64,000 bases of DNA, taken from the NCBI GenBank assembly GCA_019421005.1, contig JAHZGA010000002.1, positions 10,204 to 74,203 of the forward strand, in the 5' to 3' direction. Origin of the DNA: a bacterium. Its GTDB lineage: Bacteria > Bacillota_I > Bacilli_A > RF39 > UBA660. Under the pieces are notes generated by a model. The model saw only the letters and a program-made list of their open reading frames with translations. It was not told the DNA's origin and did no database searches. Of this stretch, positions 1 to 40,305 are shown in pieces (position 1 is the stretch's first letter; every line of letters begins with the position of its first letter). The position numbers and the translations under genes are program-made.

Positions 1-420
1 TGAATCAATAATTCTAGTTAATCCAGATGGATTAAAAGATAATTGCGGTCCATTATAAATAATATTATTATATTCAACTAAAACGTTTTTATAATTATTG
101 TTTTCAGAAACACTTATAACTCCATAGTAATTATATCCAACAACATCTAAATTACAAACTTTAACATTTAAAATTGTTGGATAACTTATTGAAATTGTAT
201 CAGAACTAGCAAGACTTTTTTTATCAGTAAAAGTATATCTAACTCCTTCATAAGTACCATCTATAGTAACAACTTCTTTACTATTAGCTATTTTAATACC
301 ACTTTCTAAAGTGATATTATCACCAAAATAAATATAAGAATATTCATTTACACCTTCTAAAACATTTTTAAGTTCACTACTGGAAAAAACTACCACTGTA
401 TGATTATTAATAACCTTCAT
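1..420 (-). CDS. hypothetical protein, 5' portion only (gene continues past the left window edge)
   Basis: Not in the ORF track. Manual translation from ATG 420-418 (AAGGAG upstream) gives MKVINNHTVVVFSSSELKNVLEGVNEYSYIYFGDNITLESGIKIANSKEVVTIDGTYEG..., with 140 codons open down to position 1. No motif I can name. Confidence 0.5.
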   Translation of the reverse strand, partial: MKVINNHTVVVFSSSELKNVLEGVNEYSYIYFGDNITLESGIKIANSKEVVTIDGTYEGVRYTFTDKKSLASSDTISISYPTILNVKVCNLDVVGYNYYGVISVSENNNYKNVLVEYNNIIYNGPQLSFNPSGLTRIIDS

Positions 421-487: not shown

Positions 488-520
488 AAAATAAAAATTA
501 GTTATATTTCAAACTAATTT
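488..520 (-). terminator. rho-independent terminator after the PrsW-like gene
   Basis: Minus strand reads AATTAGTT-TGAAATAT-AACTAATT followed by TTTTATTTT. The hairpin starts at the stop codon. Confidence 0.6.
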
Positions 521-1685
521 ATCTACCTTTTTTATTTTCTAATGCTTTAGCTTCATCAATTTGTTTTAAACCTAAATTTATAAAATATACAATTACAATC
601 CAAGCAAGTACTGTCATTGTAATTTGAACTAAATAATATGGTGCTTGAATAGGCATATCCCAAATACCATGTAGTACAACTGGAATTAAACAAATTAATA
701 AAAATCTTTTATCATTTAAATGTTTTTTTTCTAACTTATCAAAACCTTTAACATACATTAATGCTGCTCCTTCTATAGCTGCCCAAGCAACATGTCCTCC
801 AGGTGCAAGAAAACCACGCAATTTAATAATATCTAACATAGCTTGTAATCCATTACCAAGGCCAAATCTTAAAATATATCCTGCTGTTTCAAAAGCTGCA
901 AAACCTGCTCCTACAGCTGCGCCTATTAACAATCCATCTAAAATATAATTACTTCTTTTACTTTTGAATAAGAAAAGTGCAACTACAACAGCTTTAGCAA
1001 CTTCTTCAATTAAACCAATCAGTAAAGCTCCTTCATAAGTTTGAACTGTGGCGCTAGCTTGAAAATATGGTAGTGAGAAATATAAGATAGCTAAAATTAA
1101 CGATAGGGCTCCACCTAAAATAAAGTATTTTATTACCTTATAGAATGGTATATTTCTAAACAAATTAATCTCAAAGAAAAATATCAAAACTGTTACTGGT
1201 ACAGCAAATGCTGCTAACATAATCATAATAGGTAAAAAGTTTTCATTTCCATAATCTATAAAGCCTATCCTAGTTGGAATATACGCTATTACGAAAAATA
1301 TTAAAATTTTAAAATATACCCAAGCACTGGCATCTTTAGGATTAATATCACTAATTTTAGGAGTAGTATTTTTAGTACCACAAACAAATACTTCATCTAA
1401 TTCTTCATCAGTATGTTTTTTAAAAGTATTTTTAAATAAGTCTTTAAAAGTAACATAACTTTTATACTCTGCTCCAGTTATTTTATCTAAATTTTCAGTT
1501 ATTATATTAGATGCGTTTTTTTTATTAATTGGATAACCACAATCTAGACAATTAGTTTCATCACCTTTCAATTTTTTTCCACATTCTGGACAAGTTTGTA
1601 ACTTTATTTTAATTCCACAATGAGGACATACTTTCGCACTTGATGATATTTCCTTACCACATTCATCACATTTAATAAGTGCCAT
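519..1685 (-). CDS. PrsW-family intramembrane protease with N-terminal double zinc ribbon
   Basis: 388-aa ORF. N-terminal ribbons CDECG...CPHCG and CPECG...CLDCG are followed by multiple TM helices. PrsW-type motifs present: IEEVAKA (EExxK), GFAAFETAGY, GGHVAWAAIEG, HGIWD (HxxxD). AAGGAGG lies upstream of the ATG. Confidence 0.8.
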   Translation of the reverse strand: MALIKCDECGKEISSSAKVCPHCGIKIKLQTCPECGKKLKGDETNCLDCGYPINKKNASNIITENLDKITGAEYKSYVTFKDLFKNTFKKHTDEELDEVFVCGTKNTTPKISDINPKDASAWVYFKILIFFVIAYIPTRIGFIDYGNENFLPIMIMLAAFAVPVTVLIFFFEINLFRNIPFYKVIKYFILGGALSLILAILYFSLPYFQASATVQTYEGALLIGLIEEVAKAVVVALFLFKSKRSNYILDGLLIGAAVGAGFAAFETAGYILRFGLGNGLQAMLDIIKLRGFLAPGGHVAWAAIEGAALMYVKGFDKLEKKHLNDKRFLLICLIPVVLHGIWDMPIQAPYYLVQITMTVLAWIVIVYFINLGLKQIDEAKALENKKGR

Positions 1686-1686
1686 C

Positions 1687-2367
1687 TTATTTACCTCCTT
1701 CTGTTAAACTTGATAAAATATGTTCAGCTACACTATTTATTTCATCTGTATTAGTATTTTCTTCTTTAGTTGCAACCATATATACTTTATTATTTATAAC
1801 AGTTGCATATCTATTATCAATTACCACATGATTATCTGAATTATAACTATAGGCAACTCCATAAACAGTTTTATTTCCAATTGTTCCTGAAACTAAATCA
1901 ATTATAATTTTAAGGTCATTATATTGTTCTCTCATATAATCTGTAAAACTATTTAAAAATTGTACCTCATTATTAAATTGATCATATCTACCAACAATTA
2001 AATAAGGAATTAATACTCCCTCGTTATCTACATTTTGACCAACATAAATAAATCCATCCTTATCAGTTATTACCTTATAACTACTAGGTATTTCAAAAGA
2101 TATACCTAAATTAGAATCACTATAAACTGAATATCCACTATTTGATGATGGTGTTGTCTTTTGTTCATTATTATCAGTTGGTTTTCCAAAAATTAAATAA
2201 CCTCCTACAATTATAACTAAACCTATTATTAAATATTTTAAGTTTCCTTTAGATACTTTTTTTACTTTTTCAGTATTAGTTTTTTTAAGTTCATAACCAC
2301 ATTTAGGACAACTATCAGCTTGATCACTTACCTTATTATTACACTCTGGACATTTTATTAATGCCAT
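1687..2367 (-). CDS. zinc-ribbon single-pass membrane protein (anti-sigma-like topology)
   Basis: 226-aa [27 protein letters not shown] ribbon, one TM helix ([16 protein letters not shown]), then an outside domain of about 160 aa. The stop is 1 nt from the PrsW start. GGAAGGTGA lies upstream. Confidence 0.7.
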
Positions 2368-2540
2368 AACATCACCTTCCTATTATATTATGGTAAATTT
2401 TTGTCATTTTATTTACCTTACAATATAAAGTATAATATAATCAGCACTTAAATTAAAGTAATTTTACTAAATAGTCAATGACTTTTTGGCAATTGAAAAT
2501 TTTATTTTATTTTGGTATACTAATGAAATGGAGGTATTTT

Positions 2541-4211
2541 ATGAAGTTCAATGAAATTTTAAATAAATATATTAACCTTATAAACTGTAGTTCTAAAGAT
2601 TTAGCAACCGTTTCAAAATTATCGTCATCAATAATAAGTAGATATAAATCTGGTGGTAGAATACCTAACAATGATAATTTAAAAGTAATAAGTAAAGCAC
2701 TTGAAACTTTATCAAATAATAAATATAGTTATAATGATATTTTAAATGATTTTTATAAATCAATTGATGCTTATTGTTTTGACTTTAAAATAATTAGAAA
2801 TAATTTAAATACATTAATTAATTACTTTAATATAAATGTTAGTGAATTGGCTAAATTTTTAAATTTTGATGCCTCTTATCTTTCTAGAATAAGAAGTGGG
2901 AATAGAATTCCTCACAATAAACAAGAATTTGTTAATTCTTTATCAAAATATATTTTAAAAAAATATAATAATACTGATTTATGTTCCCTAATTAATTGTA
3001 ATATTAATGAATTAAGTTTAAGTAAATTTAAAGATTGGCTTATAAAAGATAATAGTAATTCAAATGAAATTGATAGTTTCTTACAAAAATTAGATGATTT
3101 TAATTTAGGAGATTTTATAGCTTCTATCAATTTTGATAAATTAAAAATTCCTAATATTCCTTTTTATAAAGTTAAAAACAAACATTATTATGGTATTGAA
3201 GAAATGAAACAAGGAGAACTAGACTTTTTTAAAGGTTCTATTTTAAAAAAATCTAGTGATGAGATTTTTATGTGCAGTGATATGCCAATGGAAGATATGG
3301 CTAAAGATTTAGAGTTTTCAAAAAAATGGATGTTTGCAATTGCAATGAGTTTAAAAAAAGGTATGCATTTAAATATCATTCATAATATTGATAGACCTTT
3401 TAAAGAAATGATGTTAGGATTAGAAAGTTGGATACCTATATATATGACTGGACAAATATCCCCTTTCTATTTAAAAGAGGTTAAAAATAGTGTTTATCAT
3501 CATTTAAATTACGTATCTAATTCTGTTGCTTTAACTGGTGAATGTTTAAAAGGACATCATTCTGATGGAATGTATTATTTAACTAATAATAAAACTGAAG
3601 TAGATTATTATAAGAAAAAATCTGATTTATTATTAAAAAGTTCTAATTCATTAATGAATATTTATAAAGAAAACAATTTAGAATTTAAAAACTTTTTAAT
3701 TAAAGATAAAACTATTAAAAAAGATAGAATAAGGTTTTTAGCATCTCTACCTTTATTTACAATTGATGATGCTACACTTTTAAATATTTTAAAAAGAAAT
3801 AATATAAATCAACAAGATATTGATAAAATAATAAGTTTTAAAAATGAAGAAGTTAAACATACTAAAGATATTTTAAAAGAAAATAGTATAAATGATAATA
3901 TCTATTTAAATAAGAATTTTGATGAAGAGATTTGTTTATCTATTGATAATATGTTTTATAATAAAAAAATCTATTATAATTACAAAGATTATAAAAAACA
4001 TTTTAATTTAACAAAAGAATATGCTAAAAAAAATAGCAACTATAAAGTTACTATTAATGAAAACAGAACATTTAAAAATATTACCATTACAATTTTAAAA
4101 GATAATTATGTTACTATTTCTAAAAATTTAAATCCTACCATTCATTTTGTTATTAAACATCCTAAATTAAGACATGCAATTGAAAATTTTAAATCAGCTA
4201 TAAAAGAATAA
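2541..4211 (+). CDS. transcriptional regulator with two HTH modules and a large uncharacterised C-terminal region
   Basis: The ORF track gives 2478..4211. I prefer ATG 2541, which has GGAGGT 7 nt upstream. Two HTH-like modules: DLATVSKLSSSIISRYKSGGRIP and ELAKFLNFDASYLSRIRSGNRIP. The remaining ~400 aa have no motif I recognise. Confidence 0.65.
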   Translation: MKFNEILNKYINLINCSSKDLATVSKLSSSIISRYKSGGRIPNNDNLKVISKALETLSNNKYSYNDILNDFYKSIDAYCFDFKIIRNNLNTLINYFNINVSELAKFLNFDASYLSRIRSGNRIPHNKQEFVNSLSKYILKKYNNTDLCSLINCNINELSLSKFKDWLIKDNSNSNEIDSFLQKLDDFNLGDFIASINFDKLKIPNIPFYKVKNKHYYGIEEMKQGELDFFKGSILKKSSDEIFMCSDMPMEDMAKDLEFSKKWMFAIAMSLKKGMHLNIIHNIDRPFKEMMLGLESWIPIYMTGQISPFYLKEVKNSVYHHLNYVSNSVALTGECLKGHHSDGMYYLTNNKTEVDYYKKKSDLLLKSSNSLMNIYKENNLEFKNFLIKDKTIKKDRIRFLASLPLFTIDDATLLNILKRNNINQQDIDKIISFKNEEVKHTKDILKENSINDNIYLNKNFDEEICLSIDNMFYNKKIYYNYKDYKKHFNLTKEYAKKNSNYKVTINENRTFKNITITILKDNYVTISKNLNPTIHFVIKHPKLRHAIENFKSAIKE

Positions 4212-39606: not shown

Positions 39607-40305
39607 ATGTTAGATTTTTTTAAAAATATTTTTAACGATTTATATTTTTTAACAACATCATATTCAAACAACTTATTCCCAGAACCTTTAAAAAAAGAAG
39701 AAGAAGAAAAATATGTTAATGAAATGCTTTTAGGAAATAAAGAAGCACGCGCGAAAATAATTGAACATAATTTAAGATTAGTTGCCCATATAGTTAAAAA
39801 ATATGAACATAGAAAAGAAGATGAAGATGATTTAATAAGCATTGGTACAATTGGTTTAATTAAAGGAGTAGATAGTTTTTCCCACAAACATGGTACTAAA
39901 ATAACCACCTACTGTGCAAGATGTATTGAAAATGAAATTCTAATGCATTACCGCAGTGATAAAAAAAACAGTAAAAATATCAGCATTAATGAATCAGTTG
40001 GATTTGATAAAGATGGCAATGAAATAACATTTTTGGATATTTTAAAAACACCAAAACCTGATTTTGATGAAGATATCCATACCAAAAATAATATTGCTTT
40101 ATTAAAAAAATACTTAAATATTTTAACTGACCGTGAAAGGGAAATCATAATTAAAAGATATGGTCTTAATGATAATGATGAAATAACTCAAAAAGAAATT
40201 GCTAAAGAATTAGGAATATCACGTAGTTATGTTTCTAGGATTGAAAAAAGAGCTTTAACAAAAATGTTAAGAGAATTTATTAAAAACAAAAATCATACAT
40301 TCTAG
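39607..40305 (+). CDS. sigK: sporulation sigma factor SigK (pro-sigma-K, uninterrupted)
   Basis: The pro-sequence and YSNNLFPEPLKKEEEEKY resemble B. subtilis YVKNNAFPQPLSSSEEKKY. Also IEHNLRLVAHIVKKY, DLISIGTIGLIKGVDSF, ARCIENEILMHYR and ELGISRSYVSRIEKRAL. GGAGGAG lies upstream. Confidence 0.9.
   Translation: MLDFFKNIFNDLYFLTTSYSNNLFPEPLKKEEEEKYVNEMLLGNKEARAKIIEHNLRLVAHIVKKYEHRKEDEDDLISIGTIGLIKGVDSFSHKHGTKITTYCARCIENEILMHYRSDKKNSKNISINESVGFDKDGNEITFLDILKTPKPDFDEDIHTKNNIALLKKYLNILTDREREIIIKRYGLNDNDEITQKEIAKELGISRSYVSRIEKRALTKMLREFIKNKNHTF

Follow-up and report, generated by a model that had tools for sequence, protein, structure and literature searches.

The site-1 cut that PrsW (YpdC) of Bacillus subtilis makes in RsiW activates sigma-W, and an analogous site-1 proteolysis operates in the PrsW-RsiT system of C. 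difficile. The B. subtilis prsW gene is unlinked to sigW-rsiW. PrsW-family proteases are widespread, but to our knowledge a substrate and pathway have been established only for RsiW in B. subtilis and RsiT in C. difficile. Here we describe a three-gene locus at positions 519-4211 of a 64,000-nucleotide window (the whole stretch of DNA that was analyzed; GenBank assembly GCA_019421005.1, contig JAHZGA010000002.1, positions 10,204 to 74,203 of the forward strand) from a bacterium of the GTDB lineage RF39; UBA660. The minus strand encodes a PrsW-family protease with two zinc ribbons (ZnR2-PrsW) and a 226-residue membrane protein (ZnRTM), while the plus strand encodes a divergent regulator with two helix-turn-helix (HTH) modules (HTH-A); all three open reading frames lie where a preliminary description of this DNA had placed them. 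That description took the B. subtilis system as its reference and proposed a switch based on regulated intramembrane proteolysis, rewired from a sigma factor to the HTH protein. We find that the three genes are inherited together as a real unit, made up of a PrsW module, an obligate partner of predicted PsbP fold and a dedicated regulator from a so far undescribed family. We further regard it as modestly probable that HTH-A is a ligand-sensing local controller of the protease/substrate-like pair, and not the output of proteolysis. We found no description of ribbon-PrsW/partner operons or of this regulator family in literature searches on PrsW with a zinc ribbon or an HTH.

Protease and partner form an invariant pair. 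Among 301 species genomes surveyed within the family of this bacterium, 25 had ZnRTM, and in each of the 25 a ribbon-PrsW gene followed immediately downstream, one of them split by a contig end. At further loci the protease gene lay directly after that of ZnRTM in 25 of 28 cases, the remaining 3 ending at contig edges. Within the window, a single nucleotide separates the ZnRTM stop codon (1687-1689) from the protease start (1685), as reported earlier, and the two genes are translationally coupled. The regulator is a frequent neighbor of this pair: its gene and the pair were immediate divergent neighbors in 13 of the 25 pair-bearing genomes and had a gene termed c3 between them in 2 more, which places it beside the pair in 15; in 4 it lay elsewhere in the genome, and in 6 it was absent. 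Pairs devoid of an adjacent regulator (10 of 25 genomes, reflecting at least 5 independent changes on the protease tree) had housekeeping genes upstream and no substitute regulator. The ribbons of regulator-less pairs displayed an identity to the consensus of 0.77-0.82, compared to 0.85-0.86 where the regulator was present. In a more distant pair of metagenomic origin, at 46% and 72% identity, the genes come after pgk-tpi-gpmI, with no regulator nearby.

The same association was evident from the side of the regulator, for which we surveyed the neighborhoods of its best 80 species loci and built a maximum-likelihood tree. The upstream divergent operon consisted of ZnRTM(-PrsW) at 28 loci and of c3, usually together with c5, at 38, while 14 loci had a contig edge or other neighbors. 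The regulators fell into two clades, both fully supported. Clade A comprised 30 rows, 27 of which adjoined the pair; the other 3 branched within groups of mixed loci, suggestive of secondary losses. Clade B comprised 50 rows, of which 35 adjoined c3/c5, 14 lay at contig edges and 1 was mixed (35 of 36 informative loci). None of 500 shuffles clustered the neighbor labels to this degree. Co-occurrence of the three genes in other genomes, a check that the preliminary description had proposed, was borne out. The c3 (~360 residues) and c5 (~310 residues) proteins are N-terminally anchored, with large ectodomains, no Pfam match and a cytoplasmic part of only ~10-15 residues, and their operon lacks a protease; c3 bears an invariant C-terminal SQKQSDATLGYERVYDTETNEIYKAYNGF motif. 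Mixed operons of the form ZnRTM-PrsW-c3(-c5) were found at loci L095, L096, L102, L114 and L158.

All three genes were missing from same-genus genomes, indicating that the module is accessory and patchy. Comparison with one same-genus genome matched a single neighboring gene, at 60% identity, and yielded no island boundaries; the outer flanks of the pair vary between genomes. The G+C content of the window is ~22-28%, and the genome measures ~0.99 Mb in 38 contigs at 88% completeness. Related loci came from human-gut metagenome-assembled genomes labeled uncultured Bacilli, Tenericutes/Mollicutes, Mycoplasma sp. CAG:877 or Clostridium sp. CAG:302, all of which we take to be RF39-type Bacilli in the sense of GTDB. 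The three genes are a self-contained unit of uncultured gut Bacilli with ~1-Mb genomes.

The protease gene (519..1685, minus strand) encodes a 388-residue, glutamic-type intramembrane protease, recognized from its open reading frame and from Pfam PrsW-protease (PF13367; MEROPS M82), which matched residues 181-366 with a score of 102.7 bits (cut-off 23.5; E=2.4e-29). This catalytic membrane domain (588..1145, minus strand) carries EExxK, FxxxE, GHxxW and HxxWD motifs. Residues E227, E228 and K231, F262 and E266, H298 and H339 (together with D343) were invariant in 25 homologues, very distant ones included, which upholds the three motifs named earlier (EExxK, FxxxE, HxxxD); since these catalytic residues are invariant, the enzyme is probably active. 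Hydropathy predicted seven transmembrane helices between residues 125 and 373, preceded by a cytoplasmic extension of ~124 residues. The extension opens with two tandem CxxC...CxxC zinc ribbons (residues 1-55; 1521..1685, minus strand), recognized in alignments and by Pfam DZR and Zn_ribbon_3 matches on residues 4-50 (DZR at 6-50), and a juxtamembrane linker that is likewise conserved (FKDLFKNTFKKH...DEVFVCG) comes after them. The protease shares its family and its EExxK, FxxxE and HxxxD motifs with B. subtilis PrsW. In contrast to the latter, it bears the ~124 extra N-terminal residues with their two ribbons, and it scored only 55.3 bits on the equivalog profile for B. subtilis PrsW (NF033739). 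As this value is far under the cut-off of 225, the profile comparison identifies the protein as a PrsW family member but not as an orthologue of B. subtilis PrsW.

The partner, ZnRTM (1687..2367, minus strand), is a bitopic protein made up of a ribbon, a transmembrane helix, a low-complexity stalk and an ectodomain, as judged from its open reading frame, Pfam, alignment and an AlphaFold2 (AF2) model with a mean predicted local distance difference test score (pLDDT) of 83.4. The cytoplasmic ribbon (residues 1-28, MALIKCPEC...CPKCGYELK; 2284..2367, minus strand) matched Pfam Zn_ribbon_3 at residues 4-27. Its CxxC-x10-CxxC cysteines (C6, C9, C20 and C23) were invariant in the alignment, and the AF2 model placed beta strands at residues 2-4 and 11-13. 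A hydropathy scan located the single transmembrane helix at residues 43-61 (2185..2241, minus strand; AF2 helix 42-58), with a Lys-rich segment on its N-side and an N-in orientation by the positive-inside rule. The stalk that follows is rich in Asn, Gln, Thr and Gly and very variable in length, and leads to a conserved ectodomain of ~150 residues (residues 78-226; 1690..2136, minus strand). The overall architecture proposed before, namely a ribbon, one transmembrane helix and an outside domain, is therefore sound.

The ectodomain was modeled with a pLDDT above 92, and Foldseek aligned it with PsbP, CyanoP, DcrB, LpqN, Apa and Tsi3 (E 1.4e-6 to 1e-4, probability 1.0), at target-normalized TM-scores of 0.55-0.66 and sequence identities of 12-17% for the PsbP-fold matches. 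Pfam PsbP (PF01789) scored under its gathering threshold (17.7 bits versus 23.5, E=0.0039). In the models, then, the resemblance to PsbP is at the level of fold only. The ectodomain is like the DcrB, LpqN and PsbP-fold envelope proteins in fold and in its location outside the cytoplasmic membrane. However, those proteins are either lipoproteins or soluble in the periplasm or lumen, and they have no ribbon and no linked protease. Profile-profile comparison of the ectodomain with c3 (16.6% probability) and c5 (1%) gave no credible homology. TcaA of Staphylococcus aureus likewise combines an N-terminal zinc ribbon, a single transmembrane helix and an extracellular domain, and its NCBIfam profile weakly matched ZnRTM; the match was confined to ~35 residues of the ribbon (E=3e-4, far under the cut-off), while TcaA has another ectodomain and no paired PrsW.

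ZnRTM parallels RsiW as a candidate bitopic, N-in partner: both combine a cytoplasmic head of a metal-binding type with a domain on the outer side of the membrane. The preliminary description had called it anti-sigma-like, and to that extent the topology agrees. The zinc site of RsiW, however, is a CHCC motif within a three-helix bundle (PMC5358783), whereas the head of ZnRTM is modeled as a beta zinc ribbon and its ectodomain is PsbP-like. We found no zf-HC2 or anti-sigma Pfam domain in ZnRTM, and the candidacy of its ribbon as a zinc-associated anti-sigma (ZAS) domain was rejected on the grounds of this difference between a beta CxxC...CxxC ribbon and the helical CHCC site. As far as the models go, ZnRTM and anti-sigma factors have a common topology and no homology. 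The N-terminal start MALIKCxEC...CPxCG is indeed common to ZnRTM and the protease, and alignment bore out its duplication in the latter. As evidence of a special relationship this likeness carries less weight than had been implied: N-terminal matches to the same ribbon were found in several unrelated PHROG families and in other proteins of relatives. It is a generic N-terminal module, and we rejected it as a sign of special protease-partner paralogy. The window genome encodes just five ribbon-plus-transmembrane proteins. Searches of PDB sequences with the ZnRTM and regulator profiles returned generic ribbon or HTH matches only (E>0.008). PADLOC gave no match for PrsW, ZnRTM, c3 or c5, and PADLOC and PHROGs together returned only generic ribbon/HTH matches, with no defense-system or phage-protein assignment.

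HTH-A (2541..4211, plus strand) is a soluble regulator of 556 residues with XRE-type HTH modules at residues 1-60 and 80-142 and a predicted tandem of PLD-like domains at residues ~210-550, delineated by Pfam, an internal repeat, AF2 and Foldseek. Since a GGAGG lies 7 nt upstream of the ATG at 2541, the 577-residue product of a longer open reading frame (start 2478) is not likely to be the actual one. Two HTH modules had been reported in the preliminary description and both were recovered, the first by Pfam HTH_3 (31.6 bits versus a cut-off of 23) and the second by the internal repeat (E=1e-7) and by PADLOC/PHROG HTH profiles on residues 91-141. The AF2 model (mean pLDDT 83) places two alpha/beta domains after the HTH modules, and Foldseek aligned this C-terminus with PPK1 C-domains, vaccinia F13, NucT, FAM83, Zucchini and the effector domains of TrmB/TrmBL2 (E 1.5e-7 to 1e-3). 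Pfam and a PDB profile search gave no sequence-level match for the PLD-like region, and two HxK(x)4D catalytic motifs were not found; the second domain keeps H540-P-K542 only, and the first has H276-L-N278. Because a full HKD pair is missing, a binding role is more likely than catalysis for the modeled domains. No Pfam family covers the C-terminal 350 residues of HTH-A (window 3168-4190).

The archaeal sugar-responsive regulators TrmB and TrmBL2 provide a close parallel to this predicted architecture, in that they join a DNA-binding N-terminus to a PLD-fold, effector-type domain devoid of a full HKD and follow one-component logic. They have one winged helix in place of the two XRE HTH modules of HTH-A, whose PLD-like domains are predicted to be two in tandem, and they show no sequence-level similarity to it. 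The regulator family is much larger than that of the pair, with more than 7,000 close matches and 449 representatives at 50% identity at E<=1e-30 (~1,400 at E<=1e-10). Nearly all of the best 150 representatives of the 449 matched over their full length, measured ~560-590 residues and kept the architecture constant.

The start codons of ZnRTM and HTH-A are separated by a divergent control region of 173 bp (2368..2540). Within it, motif conservation revealed a candidate operator, TTTTACTAAATA-GTCAATGAC-TTTTTGGCAA (2463..2492), consisting of an inner palindrome, GTCAaTGAC, and outer half-sites, four half-sites in all. The corresponding clade-A motif, TTTAC-n-GTCAaTGAC-n-TTGnCAA, had its center 48-78 nt ahead of the start codon of the regulator at 21 or more clade-A loci, and its extended form occurred a single time in the 0.99-Mb genome, at 2463-2492. 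Clade-B loci instead had a near-perfect 31-bp palindrome, CTTaCCAnnAAAAACAtTGTTTTTnnTGGtAAG, 67-78 nt from the regulator start. The motifs of both clades comprise four half-sites, inner and outer ones, as would suit a dimer in which each subunit brings two HTH modules. The clade-A motif was also retained at L103 and L110, two of the three loci of this clade that now face only c3/c5. Abutting the operator is a promoter-like site of the regulator gene, TTGAAA-17-TGgTATACT (2493..2521, plus strand), predicted from its match to the consensus only. Intergenic comparison also identified a conserved AAGTATAATATAAT block (2428-2441), which lies ~35-45 nt from the operator wherever the control region is of the ZnRTM type and resembles -10 hexamers on both strands; it may be the promoter of the pair or a second plus-strand promoter.

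These observations lead us to favor a model in which HTH-A would be a dedicated one-component transcription factor, presumably dimeric, that binds the palindrome of four half-sites at 2463-2492, next to its own -35 box, through the four HTH modules of the dimer. From the shared control region it would autoregulate and control the operon of the pair, with the tandem PLD/TrmB-like domain acting as its own ligand sensor. By analogy with PrsW-RsiW, ZnRTM would most likely be the cognate substrate or gate-keeper of the protease; on the outer side, its ectodomain would bind a ligand of the envelope, and the cut would fall in or near the stalk or membrane. HTH-A would set the expression of the pair and would not itself be released by proteolysis. 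A conserved operator in a shared control region is what one expects of a local one-component regulator. We favor this direction of control because the sister clade B works with a protease-less operon whose anchored proteins have almost no cytoplasmic part, because the pair has repeatedly been kept in the absence of the regulator with its ribbons conserved, and because HTH-A has a predicted sensor-like domain of its own. Since the protease is always co-translated with one bitopic partner, the pair provides a second candidate PrsW substrate or partner that is directly testable by heterologous co-expression. The regulator family is sizable and unannotated, and appears to control operons of anchored surface proteins in abundant uncultured human-gut Bacilli.

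Several findings weigh against this assignment of roles. A consensus scan of the minus strand of the control region found no convincing sigma-70 promoter for the pair, and we infer operator control of the pair from position only. The PLD-like match of HTH-A is at the level of fold, with TM-scores of 0.4-0.6 on single-domain targets and ~0.2 for the whole chain, and the region lacks a full HKD motif. The 27 of 30 clade-A loci co-inherited with the pair fit a signaling partnership equally well. In addition, K22 of ZnRTM (CPKCG) was kept in 32 of 33 pairs with a regulator, whereas 6 of 11 regulator-less pairs had replaced it by His in 3-4 independent events, a pattern in the alignment that hints at a constraint between ribbon and regulator. 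PrsW homologues of other Bacilli families possess an N-terminal XRE-like HTH instead of ribbons (Pfam HTH_3 at E=1e-4 together with PrsW in L085; a weak HTH_26 in L088), followed by the same amphipathic juxtamembrane linker as in the window protease. In one genus (L085, L087) such an HTH-PrsW is the last member of a co-directional trio that also encodes a 436-442-residue soluble XRE protein and a 221-residue bitopic protein.

Co-inheritance, the K22 pattern and the HTH-PrsW homologues with their trio all speak for an alternative close to the original proposal, as do the presence of a RasP-like M50 protease and the lack of an extracytoplasmic function (ECF) sigma factor in the genome. According to this alternative, the ribbons of ZnRTM and/or PrsW hold HTH-A at the membrane until the PsbP-like domain perceives a signal from the envelope and sets off a site-1 cut by PrsW; a second cut by the M50 protease would follow, freeing HTH-A for its operator. 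The concept resembles BlaR1-BlaI and MecR1-MecI, in which a sensor-protease in the membrane governs an HTH repressor, not a sigma factor, that the same locus encodes. BlaR1 couples a penicillin-binding sensor domain to an M56 zinc metalloprotease, and inactivation of BlaI, a small repressor of the winged-helix type, involves its own cleavage; the proteins are, however, unrelated to those described here, and cleavage of HTH-A finds no support at this locus. Against this alternative, clade-B regulators of the same architecture serve a protease-less operon, with anchored proteins that offer only ~10-15 cytoplasmic residues, the pair has outlived the regulator in 5 or more independent losses with its ribbons intact, and HTH-A has its own predicted sensor-like domain. 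The ribbon, moreover, is generic and not of the ZAS type. Only 4 of ~614 aligned columns track the presence of the regulator, 2 of them in the ribbons, which is not significant; a claim of co-evolution based on so few columns was rejected and K22 kept solely as a lead. Co-inheritance and the M50 protease speak for the original proposal, while ribbon type, clade B, the regulator-less pairs, the sensor-like domain and the operator count against it, and we judge release of HTH-A from the membrane to be unlikely. We are rather doubtful of its more specific form, a sigma-independent pathway in which an ectodomain ligand triggers the PrsW cut, the ribbons (K22 being a candidate contact) release or activate HTH-A, and the HTH-PrsW fusions represent a single-polypeptide version. 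Were this minority reading true, the locus would be an example of PrsW-dependent signaling to a non-sigma transcription factor.

The pair might instead serve in processing or quality control of envelope proteins such as c3, c5 and adhesins, with ZnRTM as an adaptor and the regulator tuning expression. The mixed operons, the location of the loci among sortase and sortase-substrate/adhesin genes, and the pairs standing alone beside housekeeping genes are compatible with such a role, and toxin export by PrsW-fused architectures has been put forward elsewhere, as a proposal only (PMC3239186). However, c3 and c5 are absent from most pair loci, the strict 1:1 pairing and common ribbons suggest a specific partner and not a broad substrate range, and direct support for any protein as a substrate is lacking; we deem this role improbable. 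Highly improbable, in our view, is that adjacency of regulator and pair is a historical accident with no functional tie. The 10 of 25 pair-bearing genomes with no adjacent regulator would be in keeping with chance, but adjacency at 27 of 30 clade-A loci despite differing outer flanks, conservation of the operator in the shared intergenic region and the failure of 500 shuffles to reproduce the label clustering are not. Control of the pair by HTH-A as a one-component regulator thus remains the reading that we prefer.

The wider genome differs from that of B. subtilis in respects relevant to the comparison with PrsW-RsiW-sigma-W. It resembles the latter in encoding a site-2-type M50 protease, the RasP-like protein of 337 residues (207.7 bits), in addition to a second M50 candidate, a 251-residue SpoIVFB-like protein. 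It departs from it in that protease and partner are co-translated and in that no ECF sigma factor was found among the seven sigma-70-family genes of this 88%-complete genome (SigA, SigG, SigE, SigK, SigF-like, SigH-like and a second RpoD-like), in agreement with what the preliminary description had reported for the vicinity of the locus. Separately, a ~1-Mb genome with a full sporulation sigma set (SigE, SigF-like, SigG, SigK and SigH-like) and a SpoIVFB-like M50 protease is unexpected for bacteria often labeled Tenericutes/Mollicutes; the sigma and sporulation genes lie on G000 contigs C5, C12 (window 39607-40305), C20, C33 and C34.

Surface-protein genes surround the locus in the window. Directly downstream of the protease gene is one for a 618-residue protein with a pectate-lyase-like adhesive domain (PF20585), which occupies window positions 1-420 and extends upstream of them (G000:C12:8767-10623). 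The c3/c5-facing loci (L039:3783-5841, L103 and L125-L170), where the paralogous clade-B regulator measures ~575 residues, often have sortase-like genes and NPQTG-anchored surface proteins nearby.

PrsW homologues outside the family also vary at their N-termini. Single-ribbon PrsW proteins with no upstream ZnRTM occur in other families (L082:6239-7381 in G372 and L083:5735-6844 in G441), and in L083 the gene downstream encodes a 131-residue protein with two transmembrane helices and C-terminal CxxC ribbons. The HTH-PrsW homologues, of 370-403 residues, come from other families of the class (L085:5400-6611, L087:5041-6198, L084:5775-6977, L086:5067-6179 and L088:5453-6646).

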